A stretch of DNA of 64,000 nt from Marsupella aquatica (GCA_973895155.1 OZ316891.1:8433875-8497874), one strand, 5' to 3'; shown: positions 1 to 42,439, numbered from the stretch's first letter. Notes: a model not told the origin generated them from the sequence alone. Numbers and translations are program-made.

Positions 1-90
1 TCTCCTGTAGAGAAACACAAGAAGATGCATGAGCCCGTATGGATGTAGTCACGCGAATGGTCGCGTCACATATTACAAAGAAAACATCCT

Positions 91-798
91 CTACACTCTG
101 GCCATTGATAAGTGACATCTGTTGAAGTGCTTGATAAGAACTTGATCCGCATGTCTCTGCACGTACAGATGCTCCCATATATCCTCGTTCAGATCCCAAT
201 CTCGATGTAGATTTCTAATCGACCAGATGGGATAATCGAACTTGTTAGCGAACGCAAGACAAAGCCCTGAATTTGATAGCTTTCGTAAATATGGAATGAG
301 GTCATCCCTCAAAAAGACATCATCCAACGATCCTTGAAACGACTTAGCGAACAATAATCCGCATACAGCTGTCTGGCATGTATGGGAAGGACAGGCATCA
401 ATCTGGATTATATTCTCTGGTCCATAATCTTGAAACATATCACGTAGTCTCTCGATAGATTTGAAGACAACAGTCTTATAATTTTTCTTCACATAACCAA
501 GATTCCAGCAATGATCCCGCGTGAACACATATATCAGCTGTGACAGGTCGGTGCTCGACAACACTTCTGAAAGTATCTGATAAACCAGTTTATCGTCAAG
601 AATAGACCAGACCATCACATCAAAATGATCATAAGAGAATTTTATAAGATCATGAAGAAGCGGCCTCGGAACGACACATAGAGATCCGATACGAATTCCG
701 GGTGCCGACTTGAGCTGAGGAGTATATTTTGAAACAGAGCACAGGAAGTTTTCCAGTCCTAAAACTAGAAGTTGACGCGATCTGCTCCACTTAGACAC
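91..798 (-). CDS. FCP1/NIF-like HAD phosphatase domain, probably inactive; terminal exon without its own ATG
   Basis: Motifs LLVLGLENFL..PRPLLHDLI..FDVMVWS..VFTRDHC..VFKSI..YGPENIIQIDACP; the DxDxT motif is lost. It is preceded by acceptor catttacag|GTG at 801-799. Confidence 0.7.
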   Translation of the reverse strand: MSKWSRSRQLLVLGLENFLCSVSKYTPQLKSAPGIRIGSLCVVPRPLLHDLIKFSYDHFDVMVWSILDDKLVYQILSEVLSSTDLSQLIYVFTRDHCWNLGYVKKNYKTVVFKSIERLRDMFQDYGPENIIQIDACPSHTCQTAVCGLLFAKSFQGSLDDVFLRDDLIPYLRKLSNSGLCLAFANKFDYPIWSIRNLHRDWDLNEDIWEHLYVQRHADQVLIKHFNRCHLSMARV

Positions 799-923
799 CT
801 GTAAATGAACAATTCGATTCTCATATTATGCAATTGCAAACAACCACGCGACCGGGCGCGTCACTCCCAAAAGTTCAATTTCAATCAATTTATAAATAAT
901 AATTGATAATAAACAATAAATGT

Positions 924-1829
924 TTACTTATTGGACTTATCCCGGGCTTCTATAGCACGGTCTTTTTCGGCAGATAAGTATTTCATAAATTCGTCAAACT
1001 TTTCTAAATGGTCTTTATTTCCCTGATTACGAATGATCACGTTTCTCCTCCAAAGATTTATCTTATCAATATAATCTTTCTCAAGATTTTCTTGAGAGAA
1101 CGTTGGAATCCCATATCCACTAAGGAGCTCGCGGAATGTCAACTTGTCAATTGACATGTCGCATAGATATGGATATAGTTTCTTTCTAAAAAATAGGTCA
1201 TCATCGAGCCCAGAATATGCATCGGGATACAGCGATGAATAGAAGTCATTAAGGCTCGTCTTATATGCAGCGTCATCGATAAGAATGACATTCTCGATGT
1301 TGTAATCTTTAATATCGGTGGCAATGTCCGAGAGATATTTGACAAATAAAGGGATGTCATTATTATTCTTCCCAATAAGTCGAGTTGATTCTTGTCCCCA
1401 TATAAATTTAATACGTTTCAAAACTTCGGGTCGAAGTATCAGCCTTACACAAGATAGAATATTTCGTTTGAACATGCACGACCAGATTGCAATGTCGTAT
1501 AGATCTGCCACCTTCTCAAGAAATTCCATTAAATCAGGCCTTGGATAGATAACCTTGTGCATCTGTCTCACACCCCTTGACCGAATGTGCATCCCAGGGC
1601 TGATCTTATCTGACCAGATAAGTACCCGATTCAGATCGAAAATTACAAGTCTCTTCTGAACCAGTGACTTCTTTGCCGATGGATTAGGCGCCATCTGTAC
1701 CTGTGATTTTTGTGCCGCAGGGTTTGGAGAACGTACTAGAACGGTCTGTTTGTTTCCCGCCTCTGGACGATCACTGGACTTCCGGACTGATGCCTTCGAT
1801 ACTCGATCAGGGGGTTTCAGGATAGGCTT
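924..1829 (-). CDS. FCP1/SCP-like (NIF) CTD-phosphatase domain exon
   Basis: KRLVIFDLNRVLI, YPRPDLMEFL, YDIAIWS, FIWGQE, FVKYL, ENVILIDDAAYK. Open reading frame from the acceptor at 1830. Confidence 0.85.
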   Translation of the reverse strand, partial: KPILKPPDRVSKASVRKSSDRPEAGNKQTVLVRSPNPAAQKSQVQMAPNPSAKKSLVQKRLVIFDLNRVLIWSDKISPGMHIRSRGVRQMHKVIYPRPDLMEFLEKVADLYDIAIWSCMFKRNILSCVRLILRPEVLKRIKFIWGQESTRLIGKNNNDIPLFVKYLSDIATDIKDYNIENVILIDDAAYKTSLNDFYSSLYPDAYSGLDDDLFFRKKLYPYLCDMSIDKLTFRELLSGYGIPTFSQENLEKDYIDKINLWRRNVIIRNQGNKDHLEKFDEFMKYLSAEKDRAIEARDKSNK

Positions 1830-1915
1830 CTGTAAAACATTAAGAAATGAAAATAAGTTTATAACGCGAACGGTCGCGTGACTACAAAGAGAGACACTGA
1901 AATGAAGTGTATTAC

Positions 1916-2704
1916 CTGTACAAGATGGTCGTTCAGTGCTGGAATTCCGCCGGAAATGTCAATCATAGCAGCACGGATCCCGGTAACTAGGTTACTTGCG
2001 GACGTCGGCTTGCGGAAGTCCATGTCAAATAACGACAAGACTATCTCCCTACGGAATTTCTCAATTTGATCCGCGGAAAAATTAATTCCGTTTCCTTGAC
2101 ACAAGCACTTGGCGTATCTCAAGATAAACACACCACAACTGTGGCCGTCACTCTGGTGAGGAATATCATTCCGATATATCCGTTCCCAACCTGAGAGATC
2201 CAAGTTGACACCAATTCTCCAGCCAATTTTGTCAGTGTAGTACTTCCCAACAATATCTAGCACCCCAGGATTTTGTCGATTATGAACTAGAGAATCTAGG
2301 TACTCTAGCCGTTTCTCCTTCGGATACAAGACTACCAATGACCAATGTTCTTTCACAGCATTGTGTACTGGAAAGACCAGTTTCTCGTATTCACTGATTT
2401 TTAGCGAAAACTCCTTTGTCCAAGCTGCTCTCTCCTCGTCGAAAATGGTAGGATCCATGGAGAGAAGCTCAAAATGGTGTGTTTGGAAGAATTTGACAAG
2501 GTCTGACTTTCCAACTCTATCGAGAATCAGTTCGAGAAAACTCAAATAAGCGTTAATTATATCATCGGTGAGCAACTCGCGCGGTCTCAGACACATCATA
2601 TGTTTCCTCTTGATTGAGTGTTGTAAGAACTTGGTCAATAGCTCTTCCATATCCTTAGAAGGATCAAGGCATTGATCTATTCGACTAGCCAAATTTTCAA
2701 AAAA
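1916..2704 (-). CDS. Ulp1/peptidase C48 SUMO-protease domain exon
   Basis: CLRPRELLTDDIINAY, VFPVH..EHWSLVV, YLDSL, PHQSDGHSCGVF: His-Asp-Cys triad and oxyanion Gln intact. Confidence 0.92.
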
Positions 2705-3716
2705 CTGCAAAAAACAGAGATTTCAGTACGCCTTCAAATAACGTACTGAGGTTGTAGCCTAAGGGTTGTAGCCTCAGAAAACAGAAACAATAACAGATCA
2801 ATAATGAGGTCTATAATAGAAACTTTAAGCTTATAGCTTGCGAATGACCTTTGGATTGGGTGGATCCGGCCTTTTTGCAGCTGATCTCTTGGGTGCCTCA
2901 ATCGCAACAACATCCTTCAGCCCTCCTCGAGACCGCAGTGATCGCTCCACCGGACCAGTTTGCGAAGGTTGGAGCGATGAGGCGGGAAGACCTTCAAATG
3001 GTTGTGGCATTTGATTCAAATATTCCACAATCTGGGAATCCGATTCCAAAATATCCGGTGCCACAATTTCTGCGCGAGTCACCTCTGCAATATATCGGGG
3101 TCGAGACCACGAACCCGGTCGCGTCAAGTTAGCTGTTAGTCTCTTAACGACTTGAGCCGAGTCTGGTGCCAAAAACGTTCCCAGGTCTTGCACTCGATTC
3201 TCAGAAAAGCGGACATTATTGATGATTGTCTCCATTCTGGATGCAGTGACAGTCTTCTCCTCGGTAATCAAAAGACCCTTCCAATATTGCAAAGCAAGGA
3301 CTGCCTGGACTCGAAGCTGCTCCGGTGAATATTTATTCCAATCATCCAAACAGACCGTACTTAAGGGTGGATCGTTAAATTCAAACTTCGGGCGAAGAAA
3401 ATAGTCTAATATTTTCTTCTTAACTGCAACTGAGGGTGAAGAAGGCTTCTTCAAATTCAGCCTTATTTTCGGTAGACGTTGTGCCTCAGGAATAAGCGAA
3501 AGATCCTTGGCCCTCTCGGCCTCCTTCCTCGCTGCCTCCAGTCTTGCGGCTTCTTCTCTCTCCAGTCTTGCGGAATCCACCTTTTCCGCCTCCAACTTCT
3601 CCGCCTCCACCCTCTCCGGTCTTGCGGTCTCGTCCGCCATCCTCTCGGCCAGCAGCCTCTCAGCCGCCTCACTCTCCGCCTTGGCCCTATTTTCCTCTGT
3701 CAATAAAAGGACTCTC

Positions 3717-4300
3717 GCAGCCTGGGCTTTCTCAGCCTGGGCTTTCTCAGCCTGGGCTTTCTCAGCCTGGGCTTTCTCCGCCTGGGCTTTCTCGGCCTCC
3801 GCTTTCTCAGCCTGGGCTTTCTCAGCTTGGGCTTTCTCAGCCTCCGCTTTCTCAGCCTGGGCTTTCTCGGCATCCGCTTTCTCCGCCTGGGCTTTCTCAG
3901 CCTGGGCTTTCTCAGCCTGGGCTTTCTCAGCCTGGGCTTTCTCCGCCTGGGCTTTCTCAGCCTCGGCTTTCTCCTTCTTCTTCGCGGCAGTTGCTTTTCT
4001 AGCTACTGCCTTTTTCTTCTTAACCTCCTTCTTTTGAAGCTGCTCTTGCCGGGCCGCCTCTTGTCGGGATGCCTCCTCCTGCCGGGCTGCCTCCTTCTTT
4101 TGAAGCTCCTCTTGCCGGGCCGCCTCCTGCCGGGCCGCTTCCTTCTTTTGAAGCTCCTCTTGCCGGGCCGCCTCCTGCCGGGCCTCCTCCAGCCTGGCCT
4201 CCTCCAGCCTGGCCTCCTCCTGCCGGGCCGCCTCGTGCCGGGCCTCCTCTTGCCGGGCCGCCTCCTCTCTGGCCTCCTCCTGCCGAGCCGCCTCCTCTTG
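3717..4300 (-). repeat. Coding tandem repeats (15-bp AEKAQ/AEKAE units; EEAARQ-type units) forming a charged helical spacer
   Basis: About 16 copies of gcctgggctttctca on +; translation in ORF 2831..4477. Confidence 0.9.
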
Positions 4301-5005
4301 GTCCACCTCATGTCGAGGCTCCTGTGTGGCCTCTTCATCAGAGTCCTCAGCGTCCTCGGAACCCTCAATCTCCTCATCCTCTTCATCAGCGTCCTCAGCG
4401 TCCTTCATCTCCTCTCCGTCACTCTCTTCATCTCCTCTATTGTCGGAATCTCCGACATCGTTCTGCGTATCGGTCATCCACTCTGGATCTTGGTCATTGA
4501 CATCCCCATCCGCGTCACCTTCCGCGTCACCTTCCCCCTCACCATCCGCATCACCATTGCTCCCTGCATCCTCAACATTGAAGCCGTAGTCGACTTGATC
4601 TGAATAAAATCAGATTATTTGATAAGAATGACTCACGCGTGAAAAGAAATGTTATGAATGTCCACGCGCATGTTCGCGTGACGCAATAAAAAGTAAGAGG
4701 TTTCAAAAGTAACTTACCTTGGATTGGCCCACTAGGGTACTCCGTTGGTCGAATGTACAATCGATCGAAATCTTCAGAGAGTGCATACTCTTGCAATAAT
4801 TGATTACAAATATTATCAGGGATATGTTGTTCGTGGAGGACATCCAAAACATCAGCCCTGAGAGCAGTTACGGATGGACGGTACTTCATTAATTTATCTA
4901 TACATTTTTCTATACTAGCCCGTACTGGGTCAATCAATGACAGCGTTGTATCAATTGTCGCTGTGGTGTGTTGCAAGAAACAAGACAACTCCCTATGCGT
5001 TGCCA

Positions 5006-5718
5006 CAGGGCAGTAATATTTTACATTGGATCCAGCATCCTGTAAAAAAAGCCGAAATTAGTTCACAATATTAATTGAGAATATAATAATCTAAATAATC
5101 TTACAATCGAAACCCCAAAATATAAATCAAAAAACTTACCATTAAGCACTGGATCAAGTTCGTTCCCTCACCGAAGCATATAGCCCATTCCCCACATTGG
5201 ACGAATTGACTAACAATACTTTCAAAGAATGGAAGTATCTTTTCTGGGGAAGGTGTCGTGAACTCGCCGCTCTCTTCAAAATTGGCTATCTTCTCAATCT
5301 GATATTTGGAGACCAATTGGAACTCGAGGGCTTGTGGATCGCCCATTGTGCTGAAGGCCAAGCTGTGAAAAGCGTAGGTTACAATAAGCTTCTTCTCCTT
5401 CGGCCTCTTCTGAATATAATGGCTATCGACAGCAACGTAGTGTGTGTACTTCCCTAATTCCCGTTTGATTAAGTAAGACTCAACGGGAGAGGCTACAATA
5501 ATAACCACATGGTGTGGTTTTGCCCCTATCTCGCTAGTAGCACGAAATAACCCCTCATAGAATGAGCAATTTGGCGGACGCAAATCTCCCATTGATGAAG
5601 GATCAAAATAAATCAAGCTCGCAAGGTTCTTGTCTTCACGTATGATACAGTCTGCAAACCCAGCATTTTGTATATCCTGCAGGGATCGCAATTTTAGCCT
5701 CTCACCGACCGGCCGCAC
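5006..5718 (-). pseudogene. Degenerate beta-class N4C/N6A DNA methyltransferase-like domain
   Basis: ADCI..ASLIYFDPSS resembles GDC..VDLIYxDPPY (motif IV). Downstream PSPEKILPFFESIVSQFVQCGEWAICFGEGTN..DAGSN resembles PTQKP..LI...S..GD.VLD.F.GSGT...GR (motif I). The IV-then-I order is that of the beta class. Confidence 0.5.
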
Positions 5719-6542
5719 TAGTTGGTTTCCTTGACTATCAACTGATTTCTATATTCCTTCCACCAACCTGTAGAATATAGGGTCGATCTCCTTCAACAAA
5801 TTATCATTACTAATATTTACATTTAAGCACTTCTTCAGATAACCACTCAACACATCTCTCAACTGCTTCAGCACCATCTTGTCGAGCTTAAAGCGATCAA
5901 TCATTCCTTTGACCCGCAATTTCCGCGCTGAATCTGTCAGACTTTTCAGCTCCGTCCGGGTGGATGTTTCCCCGTTGAGTTTACTCAATAATAAAATCTC
6001 AAACTCAACTTTCGTCTTCTTCTTTCTACAGAATTGCTCCAAACTCATGCTGGTCGTTGACAACACTGGAGCCTCAGAGGACTTCCTCGCCTTCCCAGAT
6101 TTCACTTGATGCTTCGGTTTTTGAGTATAGACAGTCTTCCGCTCAACATATATTCCGCTGCCTTTCGAAGAACCGAGTCTGAGCACCCTTGACAAGAACG
6201 GAACGTCTTCTTCAGAAGATGATAAGCACACGGATTATCCGCAATTTTGACGGCGTCCCTCTGTAAAATTCCGTTGTAAATTACAAGCTCTCCTGTCCTT
6301 GATAGTTCGTAGACCTCCATCCACTTCTTGAATGTTTCGTCCTCCATTGTAAAGAGAAACGGAGCCAATTCTCCAAATTTCATCATTTCGTTCTTCCCCA
6401 TTTGAGCCCATGGGCAGACAAAACTCATAGCTCTCATAAATACCTGAAAAACAATGGAAACATGACAATTCTAAGCTTGACGCGACCGTTCGTGTGACAA
6501 AAGTTTATACGATAATGTGATCGAAGAGGGTTATTTATATAC

Positions 6543-7050
6543 CTTCCAATTTGGATGACGATAATGTGATCCAGGCCGCCCAAATGAGTTCCAGATATTA
6601 CGACACTGTCGTACAATGGTGAGAAACTGTCATTCTTCCATTGATGTTTGATGACAATGGTTCAGAGCTTTCGATAATCCCATCAAATGAACATTATTGT
6701 CGTTGTTGAGCGTTGCCCAAAACATTACAGCTTCTACAGTACCGCAAGCGTCTCGTACAACTTGGCTGACTTTGTCATCCTCTCTCAGCAATTTGTACGC
6801 CATTATTGTGTGCTGGCCTCCGAGTATCCAGAAATGATTGGTCATAATGTCCTCCTCCTTTGGTGATGAATCATAGGGCGTCCCATTGTAGTCGGGATCT
6901 CTGTCGGCCTCCGACTGAACCCACTTCACAGGGACTAAAAAGCAGCATCGCTTCTCGAACTTTATAGCCGAATGAGAGAGGAGTGAATTCTTTAGCCTAT
7001 CTGTGTAATCCTAATTCCACTCTCAGCACTTGATGTGGTCCGGTGCAAGA
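6543..7050 (-). pseudogene. ParB/Sulfiredoxin-like N-terminal domain
   Basis: Read through two stops: IKC*EWN*DYTDRLKNSL...FLVPV...FWILGGQHTIMAYKLL, matching the R..(v..L..Si)...Y.IixGxH/R.xA pattern. Confidence 0.55.
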
Positions 7051-7856
7051 TGACAACGTGATGTCTCAACAAAAAATGACTTGCTGTTAAATATATTCAC
7101 AGCACTATATTCTTTGAGGAAAGAATCGAACAGAGCCCCGACATTCGCTGAGGTAATTACTTTCGGAAGATTCTCCGCCGAGTATACTTCAACCTTGCTC
7201 ACTGGCGGGGCCTTTCCCAAGCGAAATCCCTGGTTGAAAGGAACTCTCTGGAACTCAAGTACGTCAATAATGTATTGACAAATCAAATCTCCCGTTGATG
7301 CCTCTGGATCGGAAGGATATCCCACACTAGTAACCTTTTCCAAGGCGTGCCTTGCACCTAGAAGATCATCGATTCTGGGCTGATTGAAGGTTACATATTG
7401 CGTTCGATCCAAACAAATGCTTATTTTGTCTTCCTGCTGGTCGTCGCTAACTAGCAGAACCAATTCCTCTGTACACTCTTTAACTTTCATGTTCTTCTCA
7501 AAGAAACACCCGAGAATTTTTGATCTCTCCAAAATTGTAGCTTTATCATTTCTTGCCACCACAAGACGGACAGCCCCATTGCGAACGACTATTCCAAAAT
7601 CGGATATCTTAGTCGATTCAAAGAGATGGATACTCTTTGTCTCCGTTGTTCTCTCTCTGATTGACTTTCCTCGATATGCAAGTATGGATGTCTCCGCGGG
7701 AGTCATTTTTGTCTTGGTTTTCTTTCGAGAAGCAGCTTTAGACAAGTCTCTTTTCCGCTTTGAGGTTCCGGTAGGATCCATTCTGAAACAGACAAATATT
7801 GAAAGTTAAATGTTTATTATAAAATACTAACACGTGCATGGTCACGTTGTGCCGAA

Positions 7857-8387
7857 TTACATTTTAGGAATGTTTATCCTGACCCAATCTTCTCGCTCAT
7901 CTTCATCTAACCAAAACCAAAGGTTCCTAAACTTGTCAAGTTCAGATCCTTCAAATCCACCCAGAATGTCCAGCGGCGGGAGAGTTGTGATGGATTCTGT
8001 AAATCTGAATGCTACACTCCGTGAAGTCAAATGCCTTCGAAGCGATTCATATCCTGGTCTATCAGTGAAGTCGTAAGCTACCAAGGTGACCGTCGCCCAA
8101 GTACTACTATAAGTAACTATGTGGCACCACTTCTTACTAACTGTTCGAATGGCGATCAAGTCCATGACCCGATTTTTAATCGCAGTATCCGACAAATTCC
8201 CAAGACAGTGGAAAAACTCTTTGACTAATGGCCAAATATATTTCTCGACAATATCGTCCGGAAGACCGGGTATCAGGTCTTCAGCTTGACTCCATATCAT
8301 GTTTCGGTTCATAACCTTTGCACGTGCAATGCGCTCCATCATCATTTGACGATGAGATTTTCGATTCATGTCAAAGGACTGCAGCAT
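7857..8387 (-). CDS. F-box-like protein, paralog 3
   Basis: LIPGLPDDIVEKYIWP...IRTVSKKWCHIV; resembles the plant F-box motif. Confidence 0.7.
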   Translation of the reverse strand: MLQSFDMNRKSHRQMMMERIARAKVMNRNMIWSQAEDLIPGLPDDIVEKYIWPLVKEFFHCLGNLSDTAIKNRVMDLIAIRTVSKKWCHIVTYSSTWATVTLVAYDFTDRPGYESLRRHLTSRSVAFRFTESITTLPPLDILGGFEGSELDKFRNLWFWLDEDEREDWVRINIPKM

Positions 8388-8421
8388 AATATGGAAAAGA
8401 TTAAGAACAAGAACTTATCCA

Positions 8422-8988
8422 TTAAGAACTAGGACCACCGAGATTCTGAGAAAATCTACCAAACCTTTCGATTAGGACATCTCGTTCTTCCTCATCTAAA
8501 TTGTTATATTTGTTTGTAAACAATGCGATTTCGTCAAAAGTAGTAGTCCCAAGAACATATATTTCTGGAAGCATAGAAATATCCTATCGAATAACTCGAC
8601 AGACTGAGTCAAACTCCAACTCGTCAATTTCGGGTATGTTGTAAAGAGCATCATTTGCGACATCGACAATCCGGTTTGCTTGTTTGAGGATAGCCCATAA
8701 CCTTGTATTTGTAACTAAAAAGTTCCACTTCTTGCTACAAGCTCCAAGCCGAATAAGGTCTCGGACCCTATCGATAACCAAATCGTTATCGAGGTGTCGA
8801 TATCCACGCAATCTTTCAATTGAAATAAAGTGTTTGTAGAGTATTGGCCAAATGTTTGAAATGACCAAAACATCTGGTATTCCTCCAATGAGACTAGAGG
8901 AGGTTTCATCCAGCGTATCCCATATTGTTTTCTGTTGCTTTTCATGAGATGAAAGGAAATCTCGAGCCTCATTCAAAAGTTGGCTCAT
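8422..8988 (-). pseudogene. F-box-like protein, paralog 2 (premature TAG at 8584)
   Basis: LIGGIPDVLVISNIWP...LGACSKKWNFLV. Read-through gives DISMLPEIYVLG...NLDEEERD, homologous to the paralog C-termini. Confidence 0.7.
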
Positions 8989-9053
8989 CCTGCTTTTATC
9001 ATATCACAAAACATTGTTAGAAGACATACGACGCGCTTGGTCACGTAAGTTAA

Positions 9054-9605
9054 CTAGAATTCCTTAAAAGCGTAGATGTCACCCTCAAGGTATCCAACTT
9101 TGTGGCATCTGACTATAAATTTCCATTTTTCAAGAGGGTGAAGAGCATCGTAAGTCTTCGCGAAGAGTTCCCTAAGATCTCTGGACATTGATCCCATGAA
9201 TTTAATTCTTGGGTATTTCTGGAAGAAACTTTGAATTGTCGATGAGAGAGACTCATTTCCGATCGGTTTAGTAGGATTTCCTGGGAAAGCCAAATCTAAT
9301 AAACTCAACTTGATTACACCCAGAAGATAGGTATTCCCAACAAGGTGGCGCCATCTGCGACACACCGAAGATAGTCCTACAAACTCATCCAATTCCTTTA
9401 TTGAGAAATTTCCTGCATTAGCCGAGGAATTAAAAGTCTCCTTGATCCGAGGCCATATCAATTCCACGACAATGAAATCTGGAAGTCCAGGTAGTAGTGT
9501 TTCAACAAATACAGAATATCCCACCAGTAGACCATCTTGGCTTCTGTCCAAAACGTCAAATATTGGGCATAGATATCTGAAGCTCTCCAGACCAGGTTCG
9601 CCCAT
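9054..9605 (-). CDS. F-box-like protein, paralog 1
   Basis: LLPGLPDFIVVELIWP...LSSVCRRWRHLV. Confidence 0.72.
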   Translation of the reverse strand: MGEPGLESFRYLCPIFDVLDRSQDGLLVGYSVFVETLLPGLPDFIVVELIWPRIKETFNSSANAGNFSIKELDEFVGLSSVCRRWRHLVGNTYLLGVIKLSLLDLAFPGNPTKPIGNESLSSTIQSFFQKYPRIKFMGSMSRDLRELFAKTYDALHPLEKWKFIVRCHKVGYLEGDIYAFKEF

Positions 9606-9739
9606 GACTCTTTTCAGCCAAATGATATATCCCAGAGATTATTTTCACGCGACTGGTCGCGTCTACAAATCATAATGCATAAACAATTCTTTGAGAGACT
9701 GATTTTTTCGGGTGACAACGTGAAATCATAAATGTTGCT

Positions 9740-10362
9740 TCGTCCTCTAACAGAACCAGTCAATGAGAGAGCAACCTCAGACGCGACTGGTCGCATCAAC
9801 TGAACCTAAACAACTATATCCACTGAACCTTCTGTGGAGATTTGGATATGGTACGCGCTCAGTAAATCTATCTAGTTTCCTTCTCACACGCGACTGGTCG
9901 CGTCAACTGGTCCTAAAAGGAACCTTACCTCCTCTAACAGAGCCAGTCAATGAGAGATCTACGTCAGACGCGACTAGTCACGTCAACTGATCCTAAAAGG
10001 AACCTTACCTCCTCTAACAGAACCAGTCAATGAGAGAGCAACCTCAGACGCGACTGGTCGCGTCAACTGAACCTAAACAACTATATCCACTGAACCTTCC
10101 TTGTGGAGATTTGGATATGGTACTCGCTCAGTAAATCTATCCAGTTTCCTTCTCACACGTGACTGGTCGCGTCAACTGGTCCTAAAAGGAACCTTACCTC
10201 CTCTAACAGAGCGAGTCAATGAGAGATCTACGTCAGATGCGATTGGTCGCGTCAACTGAACCTAAACAACTATATCCACTGAACCTTCTATGGAGATTTG
10301 GATATGGTACGCGCTCAGTAAATCTATCCAGTTTCCTTCTCACACGCGACTGGTCGCGTCAA
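9740..10362. repeat. Composite tandem array (80-bp and 107-109-bp units), one palindrome per unit
   Basis: Palindromes at 9781, 9888, 9968, 10048, 10157, 10237 and 10344, with near-identical flanks. Confidence 0.92.
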
Positions 10363-12869
10363 CAACTCAAACAACTTTTGGACAATAGGATAATACAGTG
10401 ATACAACTGTGATTACTGACCCGTATGGACAAGGAAATCCGAGTAAGCATGATTTCATTCATTTGTATTCATTCATGAACTTTACAATAATTCAGATGTT
10501 TGAGCTCTGTCATTGTGAAACTATTATATATTAGAAGTTTAGAGAATGATCCAGCTAAGATGATTCAATTTAGCAGTCTACTGGTTGTATTTGTCAATTA
10601 AAGGATTCAGTGTAATGAGATTCACATAACATGAGAGTTTATATGATTAAATTCACATCGTGCAAGTTTGTAATGACTTACTTAAGACGATTCAGGTTGT
10701 ATTTTAATTAGTGAGTTTGTATGATTCACACATATTTGAGTTTACAAACAAACTGCATTATGAAAACTGTGCTTAATAATCAAGAGAAATTTTAGCAAAC
10801 CACAATCAACACCAGCAAAAAATGTAGAAATTACACCTGAATTCTGAAAAATTGATGTAATTGTCTGAGAGATTGACGTCCAAGCGCTTGAACACCTTGC
10901 TGCGGCATTCCAGAAAGTAAATATAAGATTGAAGATATTAATATACTAAGCAACAACAACACAGCTTCTATACTTCTATACATAGAGCTTCGCTGCCATC
11001 AATTGAATAACATGTGCTTAATGCTAAGGAGCTCATTATGTCGAGTTAAAAAGACTCTTTGAGAAGTACAATCAAAGCTGTGGATAGGCAAACTGAGCAT
11101 GAATAAAAGCGCACTAAACCTGAAGATTCAAAGAGGTGAAACAAACCTGAATGCTGAATGGAAGGAGCTAAAACAAGCTGCCAAAAAGTAGTTCGAGCTG
11201 CTGAAACACATTGATCGAGCTGATATGAGCTTAAAATTGGCTGACACGAGCTGATACAAGCACTCCCAAAAAGCTAGCTGCAACGAACTAGCAAACTAGA
11301 AGTGAATACGAGCTGTAAATGCGAGCTGCAATGCGCCAACGAGCTCCTGGTCAAAACGATGGACAACTACTAAGAGCTGCAACGCGCCGACAAGCACCTG
11401 ACCACAACGAACGAGCTGCAACGACAAAAATGAAATCCAGGGCAGGAGCGAGAGCGAGAGCGACGAGAGCGAGAGCAACGAGAGCAGGCACGCAAAAGTC
11501 TAGGGAGCGAGAAACAACAACAATGAACAATGAACTCGAGACCGTGTGCGCCGACACTAAGGAAGGACTAATTAGGGTATTGTTTTAGCATAACCCTAAT
11601 AACAGCCTAGCGACAGGAAGGTTCCAGATGATCTCCGTACACTCCACCATCGACTGAACAAACTATGCAATCGTGAAAAAAAGATTACCGGATTCCTTTT
11701 GATTTTCCGTACTAAAGGAGATTTCTATTTGATGGCCAATTTGAAATTTAAACCGGTAATTATGCAACTGCGAAAGATTGTTAATGGGGACCCCCGGATC
11801 CGTATCTTCACTATATCTGCCAATTCAAATCCAAAATGTGAACGAATGACAACTTTCTCACGATCGTTCCATCACGTAGTGGAGGCAAACTTCAAAATCA
11901 TTCCATTTTGGTAGTGGAGACCGTCGGATCCGGATCCGTACTCCACTCTCTATCTTGCCAATTCAAACCCTTACTCTAAACAACGTAAAATGATTCTCAC
12001 GGTCGGGGAGAACCGATATTCAAAATCAATCCTGTACAATGATTCTCACGACTGGAGACTCAACCAATTTTCAAAATCAAAATCGAGTCCAGATGAACAC
12101 ATCCTCCATGGAGTCAATAGACTGATCTCATTGCTCACGGATCATTCTTCATTTTCAGTTTCTCCTGACCAGGATACTAGCTGGGCTCTCAACGGAGGCT
12201 GATCCAAGGCACATTTGAGGTGGAGCAGATTGGATCATTCGACTATTCCAGTCGGAGGCGGAGCTCATTCAAGCAACGCTGGCGCAGTTCTTGTTGTGTC
12301 ACCTTCAATCTTGGGGAGAGCACATCCGATCAAGCGGGAGAGTTGCGACGAAGTGAGATGACAAACATTTAGAACCTCCATAGTCTGCCTCATTCATCGA
12401 AGCATTCTAGCGGACCAACAAAGAGCGGCTATTCTAAAATCACAGTCTGGTCGAGGATTTTGATCTTGATACGATCAACAAGTTGTCATTCTCTGGTGGT
12501 GGGATTCGATCACGATACTCAAGGAAATTGGAGTTCGAAGGAGGAGGCTTAGTTGGCTGGGACGAGGAGGGTACGCTGGAAGGAAGAGGCTTGGCTGGGA
12601 GGAGGGTTTCCGCCAACATCGGAGGGTTGCCGCCAACATTGCTGAGACCACACGCAACTGAATAACTTGTAAGTATCAATCAGCATTAATTCCACAATAA
12701 ATGAGGAGAGTAGTTGCCTTAAATCACGCATTCAATGCATGAATTGAGTCAATGAAGTTATGGTCCAATTTCTCACTCCGATTTTGATCAATCCGTGTTT
12801 CAAGTCCAATACAGAAGCAATGTATCAGAAGTACTAGTAGAGGATCTGAATGAATTCTCTAGTCTAAAA

Positions 12870-13855
12870 TTGTATGGCGTACGTGTATAGTTGTCTATAC
12901 GTTTTGCTATTGTTTATTGTAGTCGACGGCCTAGCAAAATGAAACGTAATCGAGGTCCATTTTTCAGATCTTCCTGATCTCAACTTGTTAGTACGATGAC
13001 CTGTTTTTTGGTTACACATGCAGTTCGTCACGCGCATAGTCACGTGAACCAATTTATCTCGTGTCTTTTGATATTGTTTATTGTAGTCGACAGCCTAGCG
13101 AATTGGCCAGAAATCTATTTTTAAACCAATGTCTTCGTTTCATCACGCGCACGGTCGCGTTAATGTTTTAGAGGTCAGCGAAAGTTCTGCACTCTTAGAC
13201 GTAATCACCCTTTATTTCAGAGATCTTCCTGATCTCAACTTGTTAGTAGGATGACCTGTTTTTTGGTTACACATGTAGTTCGTCACGCGCACAGTCGCGT
13301 GAACCAATTTATCTCGTGTCTTTTGATAATGTTTATTGTAGTCGAAAGCCTAGAAAATTGGCCAGAAATCTATTTTGAAACCGAGTTCTGATTCACGCGA
13401 TCGGTCGCGTTAATGTTTTAGAGGTCAGCAAAAGCTCTGCACTCTTAGACGTAATCGCCCTTTATTTCTCAGATCTTTCTGATCTCAACTTGTTAGTAGG
13501 ATGACCTATTTTTTGGGTTACACATGTAGTTCATCACGCGCACAGTCGCGTGAACCAATTTATCTTGATATTGTTTATTGTAGTCGACTGCCCAGCGAAT
13601 TGGCCAGAAATATATTTTAAAACCGAGGTCTTCGTTTCATCACGCGCCCGGTTGCATTAATGTTTTAGAGGTCAGCAAAAGCTCTGCACTCTTAGACATA
13701 ATCGCCCTTTATTTCTCAGATCTGCTTGATCTCAACTTGTTAGTAGGATGACCTGTTTTTGGTTACACATGTAGTTCATCACGCGCACAGTCGCGTGAAC
13801 CAATTTATCTTAGGTCTTTTTGATATTGTTTATTGTAGTCGACAGCCTAGCGAAT
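12870..13855. repeat. ~250-bp tandem repeat, about 4 copies, two palindromes per unit
   Basis: Recurrent gatctcaacttgttagtaggatgacctg and ttgtttattgtagtcga; palindromes at 13030, 13145, 13285, 13395, 13536, 13642 and 13781. Confidence 0.92.
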
Positions 13856-14059
13856 TGTCAGTCAGAGGAATCTCGATTTTTCCTTGATTGCAAAAATGGT
13901 TACATCGATCCCGAAGGACTTCGGATGTGGAATCCATATCCACTAGCACTATCCAGGAATTTAAGCTACACAGTATCTATAACAAGTTCTAACTTGAACT
14001 ACTCTTGAATCTGTAGTTCTAATCTTCGACTACTCAAAATATTGTTGACTTCGATCGAG

Positions 14060-14602
14060 TCAGTCATTCCAAGATGAAGGCATCCACTCATCGGTGTCTG
14101 GTGTGGATTCCCTTGAATCCAGAAATTCTTCCTTTGCCCAAGTCCTAACGTCCATAGATTTTCTCGGCTTGCTCTTTCTGTAATACAAATCAGAATCTTT
14201 GTTCATCTCTAATTGCCTTTTCTTCGGTGCGTCCACTTTCTTGGCCTCCTTCTTGACTGTCTTAGTGTCTGCTGCTGCTTCCCCCGAAATGGATTCGATG
14301 CATGCTCTGGCCTTCAACTTCTCCCCCCTTGAAACGGATTCCATGAGGGCTTTGCCCTTTAACTTCTCCCCTGATGCCATCTTTGTAGTCATCTCTGTCG
14401 GATTGGTCTCCATCTGATCTTCCATCGACAAATGTGGCGAACAATATCGTCTCTCACAAAACATTTGACCCGATTTAGTCACCGTAAACATTATATTACA
14501 TCGCTGACACATTCTGTAAGGAGTACCACAAATTTGATACGTCGAACCTTCTGAATCGTCCGTCGAAACATCCTCATTCTTTGAGCTCAGCGGAGTAGTC
14601 AT
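14060..14602 (-). CDS. Small cargo protein with a C4 zinc-finger-like motif and charged tail
   Basis: Intact 180-aa ATG ORF; CQRCNIMF....QMFCERRYC. Confidence 0.5.
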   Translation of the reverse strand: MTTPLSSKNEDVSTDDSEGSTYQICGTPYRMCQRCNIMFTVTKSGQMFCERRYCSPHLSMEDQMETNPTEMTTKMASGEKLKGKALMESVSRGEKLKARACIESISGEAAADTKTVKKEAKKVDAPKKRQLEMNKDSDLYYRKSKPRKSMDVRTWAKEEFLDSRESTPDTDEWMPSSWND

Positions 14603-14919
14603 CGCCCTTCAAACAAGAGATGCTGACCGAGACTAAGAATTGGAAATGAGAGAGCTGATGTGCGAATAGATTATCCAGTAGCTAGAAAGTGGAATGCCTG
14701 GGGGAATGAGCAATAGAGATCATCTCAATACTTTATACTGTTTAGTCTCCACTAGTCATTGTACATAGTGGTTTCTAGAAGAGGGTGCGCGTTTGACTGG
14801 CGCGTATTAGAATTGGCGGGAAGTTCAGTTGTCCTCTAATTATGACTTTAATTTCACGTTTGGCGACCGCCCCGGGAATACTGATTGCTAGTGAAGTACT
14901 GAGATTTCTTATGAAGGTC

Positions 14920-15690
14920 AATAGTTACTGACTGTCCGGTGTCCACTCATTGGTAAACTGGTACTGTCCACTCATTTTTCCTGAGTGGAGTTGAAATGAT
15001 TGTTCGTAATCGATTGTAGTCGTTCTTATTCACTTGAAATGACTGACGGACCATGCATTATCTTTACCGGTATGTGTGATGCCTTTAGATCCGTAATTGT
15101 ATCTTCCTGTCTCGCGCGCAATCGTATCTTACTTATGAAGTACCAATTACGAGCTAGAGTTTGGGCCTAGCCTTCTAGCTTCTACGTCGTAGACCCTGTA
15201 CCCTCTGACTAAGGTCACGCGACATGCCTTTAGATCCGTAATTGTATCTTCCTGTCTCACGCGCAATCGTATCTTACTTATGAAGTACCAAGTACGAGCT
15301 AGAGTTTGGGCCTAGCCTTCTAGCTTCTACGTCATAGACCCTATTATCCCTACACCCTCTGACTAAGGTCACGCGACTAGTCGCGTGCAGGGCAGTGCAT
15401 TGACTACATTCTGCCTACTTATTGACGGTTGTGACAGGACAATGCAGTTCACGGACGTTTTACTGGCGCTTATTAGCACTACTGTCCTCAGTAGTTACTG
15501 ACTGTCCACTCATTTGTTCTAAGTGGATGTGAAATGATTGATCGTAATCGATTGTGGTCATTCTCATTCATTTGACATGACTGACGGACCATGCATAGTC
15601 TGTTGCCGGTATGTGTGGTACCTCTAGGGTCACGCGACCAGTCGCGTGCAGCGCAGTGCATTGACTACATTCTGCTTATTGACCGACGTG
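14920..15690. repeat. Nested direct duplications upstream of the transposase
   Basis: atgcctttagatccgtaattgtatc at ~15079 and ~15224; tagttactgactgtcc..gacggaccatgcat at ~14922 and ~15492; palindrome+gcagtgcattgactacattc at 15371 and 15632. Confidence 0.85.
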
Positions 15691-15774
15691 ACAGGACAGT
15701 GCAGTGAAATTGACGGACGTGACAGGACTATACGCTTACAGTGATATTCTCTGATGTGCAGGATCATAATTATT

Positions 15775-18700
15775 ATGGTGACATCGACAGTCTGGATCAG
15801 GGAAGGCGGACAAGTAATTATAGGCATACGTGAGAAACAGGTTGGAAAAGGTCGCGTGATAAGTCTTGATCCTTCCAGGGTTTGTCACAATGTTCCTCTT
15901 GGGGCGGACAGAGTTCTTCTTCTATTGGAGGAAGTTTTTGACGAGACCATTCTATGCGAAGATGGCAAACTTTTGAAGGACATGATTGGGGGTTACCTTG
16001 TATGGGAAAGGAATCAGCTTTTTTGAGCTCCCATGGAATCGGAGGATGTGTTTGGCACTGTTGGTGATGATCAAGATCCAGTCAATCAAAATTATGATGG
16101 GAACAACCATAATGAGAGTCGGTCTGGTGTGGAAGTAGTTTTACCAAAGGCCTTGTGGATGGGCATGCCTGTAAAGGTGGTGGATGAGAACAAGTTGATA
16201 TTTGCAGTGGCAACTATACATGTTCTAGATCCTATAGTCAAGCTTGGGGATGTCACCCTTGGGAATACACATGTGAGAATTCTGATCAACGATTTTGTCG
16301 AGGGAGCTACCATAGATCATCTGAAGCATAGAGATTGCTTAAAAGCTTGGTCGATGGACCAACTCATTGCCAAGGATGGCAACTTGTTGTCTTTCCACAA
16401 CATCAGGCAAGTTCTGGGAGGGAACACATCTCCAACAAGTGGCAAGCGGTCCTACGTCCATAAAAGTAGGAAAAGAAAGAGTCCATCTTCCCAGACATCT
16501 AGAAGAGACACATCTTTGGCACGTCAAGATGTGTTGTTGATAAACACTAAGGACTGTTGTAGTGAACATTGTTGCCAATATTTGGACCGCAACTTGGTTA
16601 TGGCAATTAGGCAAAAGTGGTGGTCAAAATCTTTTGCGGAGCGCAAGGAGGAGGAAATCAAGGCTATTAAAAATACAATACACTTGGGTACTGGAGAAAG
16701 GATTCTAGCAGTGGAGGGCAAAGTATTGTGCTTGGAGGCATGGAGAATCATTCATTCAAGAGGAAAGACTCAATTTTATGCCTTGAAGAAGACTGTGATG
16801 GCTGGAATGAACATAGGTACCCATGGTAATGCTGGAAAAAGGCGTATGTCCGAGAAAGTATCTCAAGCGTTCATGTCAATGAAAGAGATTATTGAGGAGG
16901 CAGCTGATCATCATCCAGCCAAGTTGAGAACCATGGCAGATAATACAAGGATGGTTTTGAGGGAATTGCCAACAAATCTTACTTGGGAGAATATTAGAAA
17001 CAGGGTTAATGTTGTCAACCACGAGGCTGGTCTTCCTCCAATTTCCCAACCCACCTTGAGTCATCTACATCAGACGTATTTCAGGGAGTTCTCACGTCAC
17101 AAAAAGGGCAACAACTTTTCAAAGTGTACAACTTGTAGTGAGTTGCTTCAACGGAAAGCAAACCTTACAGGAGCTAAGGAAGAGTTAGAGGGCCTAAGGC
17201 GTGACGAGGAGGAACATCACCAAGACCACACACAACAAAGAATGTGCTATCATACCTGGAGATATGAGTCCATCCATCGTCCAAAGGAAGTGTTATGCCT
17301 TATTCATGATAAGATGGATCATTCAAAGACAGCTCTCCCAAGAATGCCCTTCAATCCTAAGCATGTGGATGGTGCCCAAAAGTTCTCAATTACTGTCACT
17401 GGTATCCTTACTCATGGTCATGGTCCCAAGGCCATAGCCCAATATCATGTTGGAGTGTGGCCAGGTGATGTCAACATCACTATTGGGTCAATTGATTCAA
17501 TACTAAGGATGTTGGAAAACCCAATTCCAATGATCAAATCACTTGTGGAGGGGCCAGACTCGACAAGTCTTTTTAAAGACCTCCTTTTTGGGAGAGCAGA
17601 TATCTTGGAGGCAAGTGTCCTTAGAGCATTTGAGGATGACATTGCCTACATCTCAAGCCTAGGTACTTTACTCACAATCCTTTAATTTATTATTATTTAA
17701 TAATATAAGCTCACACACACTGACACTCTACTTTGTGTAGTTGTTGCTCCTCCTAGCCAAGGTTTCATTAATAGGGTTTAAACCCTAAACCCTAAATTGG
17801 GGTTTAGGGTCTGACTAGGGTTTTGTTTAAAAGCATTCTGAGATTGTTACATTGTGATGCAGCACCTGAGGCACCAAAGTTCAGGCCCCTTCCACGAGTA
17901 TTGAAGCTACAACTGGATAATTGTGCCTTAGACAACAAGAATAGATATATGATGGCTTATTTGTCATTGTTGACGGCAAGGGAGGTGTTTGAAGAGGTTC
18001 ATCTTGGTTTTATGGTGGTTGGGCATACTCATGAGGACGTTGACAGTATGTTCGGGCATTTTTCAGAGTCTATGATGCATAACCCCACATACTCATTGCC
18101 TGAGTTAATGTCCTTGTTCATGAGAGCAAGGACACCCAATGCAGTCCCACATTTTCTACAGGAGGTCCCAGATTTCAAAAACTACTTAGCTCCATTCATG
18201 TTGAAGGGCCCTGAGGCATTGGTGGGGCATTTAAAACCCAGGCTGTTTAGGTTCTATGTTCGTCATGATAGTATGCCATGCTTCCAATACAAAATGAAGT
18301 CAACTGATCAGGGATGGTTACCCAAGGAAGGTATTGAAATGTGGTCATGGAAAGATGACAAAAGTCCTCACATCCCAATTGGGGTGCCCAAACGGCTACC
18401 AATGATGGAGTTGAAAATGCTTCCTGAAGTGCTGACAGGGTTGAAGAAGCATGTGTCATTCTTTGAGTTTATTCTAAAGCGAACAAAAGAGGAAGAACCA
18501 AAGCGACGTTGGACAACTCTCATCAATTATTGGAATGACATTGTAGATACTCTACAGGGTGAGCAGGTGCAATATGAACCTGAAGGTGCACACAACTTGG
18601 AATACGGGTTTTGGCCTTTATCAATATGGAGAGAGCACGTTCCACCAGAATATCGAAATGTGGCATGTGAGTTGGAGGCAACAGTGGATTATGTGGGACC

Positions 18701-19151
18701 AGCAAAAGATAAACCTCCTGAGAGTTTTAACCCTAGGGTTGATGTTGTGAAGGGCTATTATGTGTTGGTACGGCCGGACGACTCAGACCTGGATGTTTAT
18801 CCCGTCCATATGGGGTTAGTTGTTACAGATGTGGTAGAAGGACCAGTGAATGAACAAAACCTTCTTACTCATGTATGTGGCGTTGAGTGGTTTAGACCAT
18901 TTATGGCAAAGAAGCAACGTGGTCAATCAGACTGGCAGCCAAGAGAGCGGTGGGCAGATTCTTGGGATAAGAAATGGGAACGTGATCCATCTCCAATATA
19001 CAAGGAAGCTGAGACAATAGATGTTTCCTCTGCCTTGTGGTGTTTCAAAGCACGCAAAGGACCAGTGATAGGGCTGGTAGGAATTCCAAAGAATGTTGTT
19101 GTCAAGGCAAGAGACTATCTCTTGACATGCATAGCAAGTGACAAATCCTAG
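15775..19151 (+). pseudogene. DDD-type transposase (Sola-like/DUF7869-like), spliced, with one premature stop
   Basis: Motifs CCSEHCC, FSKCTTC, LIHDKMD, LKLQLDNCALDNKNRY, FMVVGHTHEDVDSMFG. Exons 15775-17662, (17741-17761) and 17863-19151 are phase compatible. The TGA at 16024 is in frame with ATG 16033. Confidence 0.75.
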
Positions 19152-19246: not shown

Positions 19247-19805
19247 AGTTAGTTAGTTGGTTAGTTTATTTAAGATATAATATTAGTTAGTGGGGCCTTA
19301 GTTTGGTGATATTAAGGCATGATATTATTGACATTCAACATTGTAATATACAACAATCCTATTAATAAATAATAATTATAGTTACACCCTCAAGTGAACT
19401 CAACTTTCAATGATTTCTGATTTTATATGGTTCCATGCCTGATTGAGTCAAAGCAATAGAAACTAACTAATTAAAGGGTGATACTATAATTGTAGGTCAC
19501 GCACCCTGGTGCGTGTCAATCTTTTTTGTATTCAACCCTATAGTAATTAAATAGACAAGTTAGTTAGTTGGTTAGTTTATTTAAGATATAATATTAGTTA
19601 GTGGGCCCTTAGTTTGGTGATATTAAGGCATGATATTATTGACATTCAAATAAATGTCCAGTAGACATTGTAATATACAACAATCCTATTAATTGTTGTA
19701 AAGAAACTAATTAATTAAAGGGTGGTACTTACTATGATTGTAGGTCACGCACCCTGGTGCGTGTCAATCTTTTTTGTATTCAACCCTATAATAATTAAAT
19801 AGACA
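19247..19805. repeat. AT-rich direct duplication downstream of the transposase
   Basis: aagttagttagttggttagtttatttaagatat at ~19246 and ~19556; tgtaggtcacgcaccctggtgcgtgtcaatc at 19491 and ~19739. Confidence 0.88.
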
Positions 19806-21309
19806 ATTGAAACAATGAATGATAGTTTAATTAAGGATTTGTGCATGGATCAAAAGGTACTTGATGTCATTTAATGATGCATTGTTATAAAGATCTTGTA
19901 ATAAAACATTTGAAATTTTTGACTATCCCATTAAATGTTAAAAAGGTTGATCATTCATTAATTAATAATATTTAGATAAAATTAGAATTAATCTAATACT
20001 TCACTATTCCTTAAATTGGGGTTGTGAGTCCCTCGGTTCTATACACTCGCGAGGTCAGTTGCAGAAAGAGACAATTGAAACGATGTGAGAAATTAGAATT
20101 CCGTCATCCACAGCCGCTTCTCATTTGCTGACGCGAGTTGTAGAAACTTTGGTCTTGAATAGTGGAAAGACACTGAACCGTCTAGTGACACTCTTCTCTG
20201 ATAGGTACCCGGCCGCAACGAATGCATGCCTTTTCCTGTACCGTAAACCCGTCGAGGTGACGGCTGCTTTTGGAAAAGCATCTATAACTTGAGATTAATT
20301 CAGAAGGTGCAATTCGTCCGGAATCCAACGTCAAGGAAATGTGTCGACAGTAAGTCTTGGACAAAATTTCCACATTCCAACGTCACTGTCCCCAATGTGT
20401 TGTGACTACTTAATTACCCTAATAAGAGAATGTTCAGCGTTCCTACACATCCTCCTAAGTCTCTGGAAATCGTCAACGCTACCAGATCGAAGCACTATGC
20501 AGTAGACTGCAGTCCTAGCTTGTCGGTACTTCTCAAGTGGAATGTACCTTCAGAGAATTTCTCAGATGTTGCAGATTGAAGGAGTGCCTCTCATAATACA
20601 CTATACTAAAATGAGAAGATAATTCTAACTTGGAAACAGTTCGAGTGCTACGATCGACCGACCCCTAAGACTTGTCTGCGTTTAACTCAATATCCTCCCT
20701 GGCTGTCAATCATGTCCGGCATTGCGCTAGGCTGACGTTAAGTGAAGAATATTCAGTGCAGCTCACTCAGGGTTTCGAATGATTGTACAGTATTCACTTC
20801 AGCTCCGGGTTTCGACATTTAGGAAATAAATTAAACTTCTTGGACCCTTAGACTGATCTCAAGACCAGCAGAAATCTTTGCCCATAGCTTGTTCACATGA
20901 TGCTAGCTACTCTACATGGCAAACGCTGCAAGGGATTGGGATTCCGTCAGGCCGGGAGAAGTACCTTCCTCTCTCGAAGAACGCATAAATGAACACAAAA
21001 AATACTAGAGTGGTGCCAATTGAGCTACTCAGTCGGATACTCATGCTAATCTTGGAGAATTCAAATTAGAGAACGTTTCCAGCGGCCTGTAGGTAGTAAG
21101 AGCAGTGCTTGTGGGCCTACTCGATCCGGACCCGTCTAGCTTCTAGATTCAAGTGCAAGAAGCTGCTCCTGCTCTGCGATGTACGTACCCAGCTTAATCG
21201 TCAACAAACTCACGAATGATGCCTTTCATGCAGCCAACCGTGTACTAGATTCTGAGGCTTCCATTCAATACACACATCTCAGCGACCTAGCCTAGTTCAT
21301 GAAACTAGC

Positions 21310-41590: not shown

Positions 41591-42439
41591 TATGAGCAGA
41601 AGCAAGGGTTTCACTGCGGTCCATCTGAGTTGAAAAGCCATGTCCAAGCATTTGGCAAACGTGTGGCTTCAATTTTCCTCAAAACTCAAACTACACTAGT
41701 GTTTGGTTCATCTTGGACCTTTAAATCATCCAAAGCTTTACATATTCATTGACAATGACAAACTTTAAGAACCAAAGATGACTATATTTTTTTTTCAGGG
41801 TCTCATTTCACTCATCCATGATATGTACTATATGAGCAGAACAAGGCATCTGAGTTGAAAAACCATATCCAAGCATTTAGCAAACGTGTGCGTTCAATTT
41901 CCTCGAAACTCGAACTCAAGCTTTTCTATTCTCGTGTAAGGATTTCTTCGCTACAAAACTAGTCCGACGGATTTCTGCAGTAGTAGTGGACTACAGTATT
42001 TCTCGAAAGCAAAAGAGGTGTTCAGAAATCGTCGATCACATTTCCCATCGATGACATCTTCGTATCGAGCACAATCATGTCAATTCGCCAATTCCAGTGA
42101 TTCTCTCGAAGAGCTGTGCCGTGACGTGAGTCGAACAGAATGATGTTCGACATCACCAGTTTGGTGTTGTAGTCGAGAGACTGCATGTCGAAGAACTTCA
42201 CTCCTCTTGGCGAGGATTGGTTTCGTGATTCGAGTTGGACGGGATGATGTTCGATGGCATCGGGATTGTGATGTAATCGAGACACTGACTCGAAGTTTTT
42301 ATTCCAACCTTGCGCGAAAACTTCGTGTTGTGTGTCTGTTCCTTTGAGGGGAGAAGCGGTTGAATGCCGTAGAGGCGGGCATTGTGAGCAGATTAAAGCC
42401 TTGGCATCGGAGTGGCGCAGTTACTGTAGTACGGGAGCG

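Follow-up and report, generated by a model that had tools for sequence, protein, structure and literature searches.

A putative ParB-like and pseudo-methyltransferase accessory gene in a giant transposon of the liverwort Marsupella aquatica

Described systems and the present element

Sola1-1_Ec32 of the brown alga Ectocarpus is a 21.5-kb DNA transposon with an opposite-strand gene for a 1104-aa ParB-like and N4C/N6A methyltransferase protein (Dinatale et al. 2025, PMC12477816); similar ParB-methyltransferase proteins are reported by its authors from green and red algae. The Ectocarpus protein is predicted to methylate and is proposed to bind its own element. For green algae, Iyer et al. 2011 is reportedly the source. 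Red-algal Plavaka carry PAG2 with a PF01555 methylase and PAG3 with a ParB-like domain, with inverted-repeat arrays adjoining (Petroll et al., bioRxiv 10.1101/2025.02.11.637652). In separate genes, ParB is fused there to a 2OG-oxygenase and the methylase, which is Pfam-detectable, to SET. VANC21 binds VANDAL21 within introns and between genes and removes methylation, with local CG hypomethylation (PMC5735166). VANDAL/VANC is named in the Plavaka preprint as the sole system for which binding and modification of its own transposon sequence are known (bioRxiv 10.1101/2025.02.11.637652), and the algal accessory genes are proposed to act on their own element, like VANC (PMC12477816; bioRxiv 10.1101/2025.02.11.637652).

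Prokaryotic beta-class amino-methyltransferases (M.MboIIA, M.BceJIV, CcrM, M.RsrI, M.PvuII; PF01555) have a permuted fold with motif order IV...X-I. The amino-methyltransferase mechanism is defined by the prolines and the stacking aromatic of [DNSH]PP[YFW] (PMC4738411). Beta-class enzymes are co-opted in Marchantia (DN4MT1) and bdelloids (N4CMT); both are described as active and host-domesticated, with SPPY in N4CMT. DUF3723 is a conserved Starship cargo of unknown function (10.1101/2021.12.13.472469).

The window is a stretch of 64,000 nucleotides of Marsupella aquatica (GCA_973895155.1 OZ316891.1:8433875-8497874). Its accessory gene sits in a >20-kb, multi-copy DUF7869 transposon, transposase and cargo being assigned to one element on account of adjacency and of palindrome variants. 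The plant-transposon setting proposed in the preliminary description is upheld. The gene fits the algal-type ParB-methyltransferase accessory gene by design, with the ParB half putative. As in Sola1-1_Ec32, it lies opposite the transposase in a giant transposon and its protein is proposed to bind its own element; unlike it, the host is a land plant, the catalytic motifs are lost family-wide and Ulp1, NIF and F-box cargo is present in addition. In contrast to Plavaka, both domains occur in one gene and neither scores in Pfam. VANC of Arabidopsis VANDAL, likewise element-encoded, targets short motifs of its element that lie in introns, in tandem repeats and between genes, and the site layout here is alike; binding and demethylation are shown for VANC, whereas both are proposed from sequence for the Marsupella aquatica protein. 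The VANC protein and the VANDAL superfamily are presumably unrelated to this protein and its transposon. With DN4MT1 and N4CMT the likeness is limited to the fold, predicted here, the motifs being lost. Fungal DUF3723, the best look-alike of the GGQH domain, is also cargo of giant eukaryotic transposons; in DUF3723 proteins no methyltransferase fusion was seen.

The design is already published for algae; the land-plant pseudo-enzyme variant is new here. Neither a liverwort member nor a catalytically dead version was found in the papers searched, and subscription papers and supplements may cover land-plant members. The main text of PMC12477816 does not contain 'palindrom', and DUF7869 is absent from the papers listed for it. 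The element extends the algal ParB-methyltransferase design to land plants and supplies a candidate binding site together with a CpG footprint that stops with the sites.

Table 1. Features of the element in the window (positions counted from the first nucleotide of the window)
Feature	Position	Strand	Remarks
Two NIF-phosphatase-like exons	94..1830	-	E 6.7e-11, 9.7e-10; apparently spliced after Ulp1
Ulp1/Peptidase_C48 exon	1915..2704	-	E 9e-18; HWSL and QSDGHSCG motifs (His, Cys) present
Accessory gene, exon 4	2834..4599	-	Acidic tract and EAARQ/AEKAQ repeats; in frame with exon 3
Intron 3	4600..4717	-	GT-AG, 118 nt; contains palindrome 4664-4679
Exon 3	4718..5039	-	Follows intron 2
Intron 2	5040..5139	-	GT-AG, 100 nt, phase 0; divergent copies joined 5032-5152
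Exon 2	5140..6443	-	Conserved middle region, then pseudo-methyltransferase
Beta-class amino-methyltransferase fold (predicted), dead motifs	5140..5700	-	Motif IV DPSS 5604-5593; X PEK; I ICFGEGT
Intron 1	6444..6542	-	GT-AG, 99 nt, phase 0; contains palindrome 6480-6495
Exon 1	6543..7781	-	ATG 7781; 48% identity to P0001 over exon
Putative ParB/DUF3723-like domain	~7085-6560, GGQHT 6821-6807	-	Within exon 1
Conserved N-terminal region, ~230 aa	Start of exon 1	-	Weak PH-fold hints
Three F-box-like ORFs	7860..9638	-	Weak matches below Pfam cut-off; separated by palindromes 7832, 9031, 9647
Tandem array, 8 palindromes	9647..10359		<=2 mismatches
Second tandem array, ~250-bp unit, 6 palindromes	13030..13796		<=2 mismatches
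Two perfect palindromes	15371..15647		Directly upstream of transposase
DUF7869 transposase-like gene, two ORFs	16027..19151	+	PF25273 E 1.2e-36; opposite strand to accessory gene
Two variant palindromes ACGCAC-N4-GTGCGT	19499..19762 (19499, 19747)		Behind transposase
Candidate right end, ending in CTC	20011-20034		Left end beyond window

The DNC/GHT motifs of the transposase and the candidate GAG..CTC end at 20034 are taken to be Sola-like. DxDxT, the NIF-phosphatase motif, is absent from both NIF-like exons. The Ulp1 and NIF exons have splice-like ends (window 94-2722, minus strand), and a palindrome lies in each gap (1864, 846, 51); from sequence, a single Ulp1-NIF-NIF gene is possible, as is a continuation of the ParB-methyltransferase gene. 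A 182-aa ORF that has no Pfam match but a CxxC-like cluster of cysteines is found at 14060-14608 on the minus strand, between the second array and the transposase. Two short related beta-rich segments precede the transposase (15745-16400, plus strand).

Structure and relatives of the accessory gene

Minus-strand gene with exons 1 to 4, starting at an ATG (7781) beyond the segment 5006..7050 described initially. Predicted protein of ~1,540 aa, provided that the gene ends with exon 4; the start of exon 3 is likely to supply the last Rossmann strand. The motifs of the preliminary description are all located as reported, on the minus strand: LIYFDPSS at 5616-5593, PEK at 5247-5239, ICFGEGT at 5181-5161 and GGQH at 6821-6810.

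A phmmer search of 1.84 billion representatives gave 14 matches, 13 of them true relatives at 26-52% identity; the only named relatives among the matches are from the liverwort Calypogeia fissa (P0005, P0010, P0012). No prokaryotic sequence relative occurs among these representatives, and no Marchantia protein among the homologue matches. Twenty-nine proteins were collected, of which 18 cover motif IV and 9 are fragments that miss it; P0013 and P0018 are unrelated repeat proteins (spurious match, E 4.4e-6) and were excluded from the counts. No relative of the methyltransferase exon was detected among longer proteins in the first homologue search, no usable match in the ESM Atlas, and, as weak negatives, no relative in the metagenome, prokaryote-genome and phage collections scanned.

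Intron 1 is supported by P0005, whose spliced protein reads WK and then EFY across the joint, and by divergent copies, which skip 6451-6541. The position of intron 2 is common to all homologues extending to the end of exon 2. Two subfamily levels are distinguished among the copies, near-identical and 80-90% identical; the divergent copies drop introns 1 and 2 and retain the exons. Homologues at 21-52% identity keep the frame and the intron positions, and the methyltransferase-like domain stays an open frame in relatives at 21-47% identity.

The Marsupella aquatica copy is disrupted by three stops in exon 1 (7025, 7013, 6632) and, in exon 2, by a 1-base frameshift (6105/6106) and a fourth stop (5751). 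Among public runs, four share 58-65% of the words of the region and a fifth 11%. Contigs of runs X1-X3 have a sense codon at 7025, 7013 and 6632 in nearly all depth, and the base missing at 6105 is present in most of the X1 and X2 depth and in about half of that of X3. Sister copies thus read through four of the five lesions, which appear to be mostly private to the Marsupella aquatica copy. At 5751 the reads list no change, the covering contigs end <=30 bases away and homologues carry a residue. A 72-nt intron ending at the 5751 TAG is disfavoured because homologues align through the stretch. The joining of a GGQH domain and a methyltransferase-like domain in one gene, claimed earlier from this broken copy, is accepted on account of the homologues: P0005 takes in the end of the ParB-like part and, beyond intron 1, the methyltransferase-like part, and so spans both, and a residue stands in homologues in place of the 5751 stop.

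Methyltransferase-like and GGQH domains

Pfam, NCBIfam, PHROG and PDB sequence searches with the window and the homologues gave no ParB or amino-methyltransferase match; one homologue matched FtsJ (E 0.0023). The AlphaFold model of 5140-5748 (16-row alignment) has a pLDDT of 82.6 and a pTM of 0.82. Its best Foldseek matches are beta-class N6-adenine methyltransferases, M.BceJIV (8urk) at E 3.5e-6, CcrM at 4.8e-6 and M1.HpyAVI at 6.5e-6, with MT-A70 proteins near behind (3.4e-5) and METTL14 chains among the fold matches. VIA-align comparison over 48,161 chains ranked M.MboIIA first (Z 12.8, rmsd 3.0, 161 aligned), followed by M.BceJIV (12.4), CcrM (12.3), M.RsrI (11.9) and M.PvuII (10.9); the best MT-A70 rows (METTL3/MTA1, 10.1-10.3) and rotifer N4CMT (8s9n, 10.2) stand below the bacterial N6 enzymes, and folds beyond the beta class reach Z <=7.7. 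By these structure searches of the model the fold is closest to prokaryotic enzymes.

In the predicted structure the Rossmann fold is circularly permuted, with motif IV ahead of X and I. The homologue profile was aligned by hhalign with a beta-class profile of 12 fetched enzymes, of which 9 have a [DSN]PP[YFW] match (phage locus L013, a split gene, was dropped). DPSS falls opposite DPPY, PSPEK opposite HPTQKP and AICFGEGT opposite VLDPFAGS; column shuffles score 12.4+-2.0, and the highest-scoring local stretch reaches 30.2 (0/100 shuffles as high), with an hhalign probability of only 18%. Foldseek (E 3.5e-6), VIA (Z 12.8) and motif register agree on the beta-class amino-methyltransferase fold named in the preliminary description, which had staked that proposal on a Rossmann methyltransferase match; with the model 5140-5748, such a match was obtained in both structure searches. 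Compared with prokaryotic beta-class methyltransferases and ParB-methyltransferase fusions, the domain has 8-13% identity, lacks DPPY/SPPY and DPFxGxG and gives no Pfam, NCBIfam or PHROG match to those families; its gene has spliceosomal introns.

The loss of DPPY and FxGxG, first seen in this copy, extends to its relatives. [DNSH]PP[YFW] is found at motif IV in none of the 18 homologues covering the site, which read D-C-S-V, D-S-T-L, D-A-T-L, D-S-S-I, D-G-T-I, D-F-S-A etc., with Asp in 17/18; the Marsupella aquatica copy has DPSS. Among near-identical copies Ser replaces Pro in about a third to half of the X1, X2 and X4 depth and in none of X3, and the divergent subfamily reads D-S-A-S (translated by hand). 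DPSS has therefore not arisen by recent decay of DPPY. At motif I, 14/14 homologues and the window have [CI]F[GS][EK][GS], and 0/14 have DPFxGxG; a 2-residue gap stands opposite DP in the alignment, and the GxG spacing is lost. The representatives lacking the motifs form 10 separate 50%-identity clusters. As judged from these sequences, the catalytic residues are absent family-wide rather than through decay of the Marsupella aquatica copy, and the protein very probably writes no 4mC or 6mA. Family-wide motif loss suggests that methyl transfer is dispensable and that binding, not writing, is the conserved job; evidence for a new plant 4mC/6mA enzyme is not provided.

A ParB identity of the GGQH domain is plausible. 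In the ESM Atlas, where likeness is a language-model feature score that gives no alignment, residues 200-408 of P0001 are nearest to fungal DUF3723 clusters (0.95, 174-185 of 256 features shared); a ParB_N cluster with PF02195 on 35% of its members is at rank 27 (0.91). PF12520 (DUF3723) gives no Pfam match to the domain. The exon-1 model is poor (pLDDT 37.5), and for this reason the missing ParB match in fold searches is uninformative. By eye the motif order resembles YbdM; hhalign against 74 ParB sequences of the YbdM family alone was in the wrong register, with 1/80 shuffles as high. The Box II GxxR arginine is required for NTP binding (PMC12704722). At the GxxR position, in a register assumed from motif likeness, the window and P0001, the two sequences covering it, have Thr (G-Q-H-T), which makes a CTP-clamp mechanism doubtful; this domain also may be catalytically dead, provided that GGQHT is Box II. 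Residues 46-136 of P0001 (window 7350-7650, minus strand) are conserved and beta-rich in the low-confidence model, and several PH/PTB-fold rows at Z ~4 are a lead from that model.

Palindromes, CpG content and possible role

The 16-bp palindrome ACGCGA-N4-TCGCGT (<=2 mismatches) has 22 matches against 0.66 expected, all within 1-15650 and none of them (0/22) in coding sequence. Positions 1-9700 are 92% coding and 8% non-coding, and 8 of the 11 gaps between coding blocks contain a palindrome, counting the 3-mismatch site 7832. The layout is ParB/parS-like, with candidate 16-bp palindromic sites in cis to which binding is proposed from that layout. Measured per kb, CpG observed/expected ranges from 0.75 to 1.26 in the first 16 kb and from 0.22 to 0.38 between 16 and 20 kb. 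The ratio at codon junctions amounts to 0.89 for 11 cargo blocks (the repeat exon, at 0.65, being excluded), compared with 0.26 for the transposase and 0.32 for Copia (Fisher p 3.5e-9). The last consensus palindrome falls at the CpG step, ~15.7-16 kb.

The explanation put first, with chances judged to be just short of even, is that the accessory protein is a non-enzymatic DNA-binding module that recognises its own palindromes and keeps the cargo arm unmethylated and transcribed. The ParB-like and pseudo-methyltransferase protein would bind the non-coding palindromes of the element and, once bound, would coat it and preserve the cargo arm in an unmethylated, expressed state; the adjacent Ulp1 SUMO protease, which looks intact, might be brought to the chromatin of the element. 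Binding of the palindromes by the accessory protein is itself somewhat favoured. An anti-silencing effect, possibly through recruitment of the Ulp1 SUMO protease, is advanced more tentatively. The transposase or another cargo gene product could be the palindrome binder instead, and CpG retention could be due not to protection but to the origin of the cargo, or to selection against CpG acting on the transposase. Two stops of the Marsupella aquatica copy are C-to-T changes in CG/CHG context, which suggests that this copy at least was probably methylated and counts against protection. The anti-silencing idea is testable in a bryophyte and could give a sequence-specific anti-silencing tool.

Docking sites for transposition are the next candidate: the ends of the >20-kb element would be joined at the palindromes, either by the accessory protein, in the manner of CACTA TnpA, or by the transposase, with methylation unaffected. 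Arrays and variant sites do flank the transposase near the candidate right end, and ParB-type proteins bridge and compact DNA. Docking is nevertheless considered unlikely, since single sites occur inside the element, in small introns and gene gaps well away from the right end, where coating of the whole element fits better, and since the CpG step at ~15.7-16 kb matches the last consensus site.

An active methyltransferase with a non-canonical site, or an inactive partner of an active enzyme, would mark the palindromes with 4mC or 6mA. METTL14 and MTA9 are inactive partners of active methyltransferases, and METTL14 chains are among the fold matches; the motif IV Asp is kept in 17/18 homologues and followed mostly by Ser/Thr, and the algal counterpart bears an N4C/N6A methyltransferase annotation. 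The two prolines and the stacking aromatic are missing, however, motif I lacks DP and the GxG spacing, and an active paralogue was not seen in 1-20 kb or among the 14 representative matches, which makes marking by either route improbable.

Little credence is likewise given to a neutral passenger cargo without present role, with the palindromes as remnants of repeat expansion. The Marsupella aquatica copy is indeed broken at five places, but sister copies are open at four of these, relatives at 21-52% identity keep the frame and the intron positions, and the palindromes avoid coding DNA where 92% is coding.

The suggestion that a bacterial or phage ParB-methylase, acquired horizontally and inactivated recently, has active plant-transposon relatives that supply enzymes like DN4MT1 draws on the prokaryotic best fold matches and on the beta-class enzymes co-opted in Marchantia and bdelloids, and is very improbable: inactivation is common to 10 separate 50%-identity clusters and is therefore old, the 1.84 billion representatives hold no prokaryotic sequence relative, no Marchantia protein is among the matches, the closest look-alikes of the GGQH domain are fungal, and the active versions foreseen in related elements did not appear, 0/18 homologues having [DNSH]PP[YFW], which within the limits of the searches run counts against a reservoir. 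Other eukaryotic transposon cargo is more likely as the proximate source than direct prokaryotic origin.

The non-enzymatic DNA-binding module may be placed in a wider frame, which is rather doubtful as a whole. In giant transposons of liverworts a bacterial-type ParB-methyltransferase would have become a double pseudo-enzyme, a reader of palindromes placed in nearly every intron, that carries or recruits a SUMO protease and keeps ~16 kb free of CG methylation over evolutionary time. It would then be a second, independent VANC-like anti-silencing system of land plants, related to the ParB-like cargo of fungal Starships and algal transposons.

Outside the element, the window has a 35-bp tandem array and a dispersed 75-bp repeat family at 39052-40507, unrelated to the palindrome. 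The Copia control of the CpG counts is a fragmented Ty1/Copia retrotransposon on the minus strand (58830-62383). Host exons at 23406-25546, 42272-42856 and 53583-54083 presumably belong with isoleucyl-tRNA synthetase, TAF10 and a rhodanese-like protein, which they resemble.
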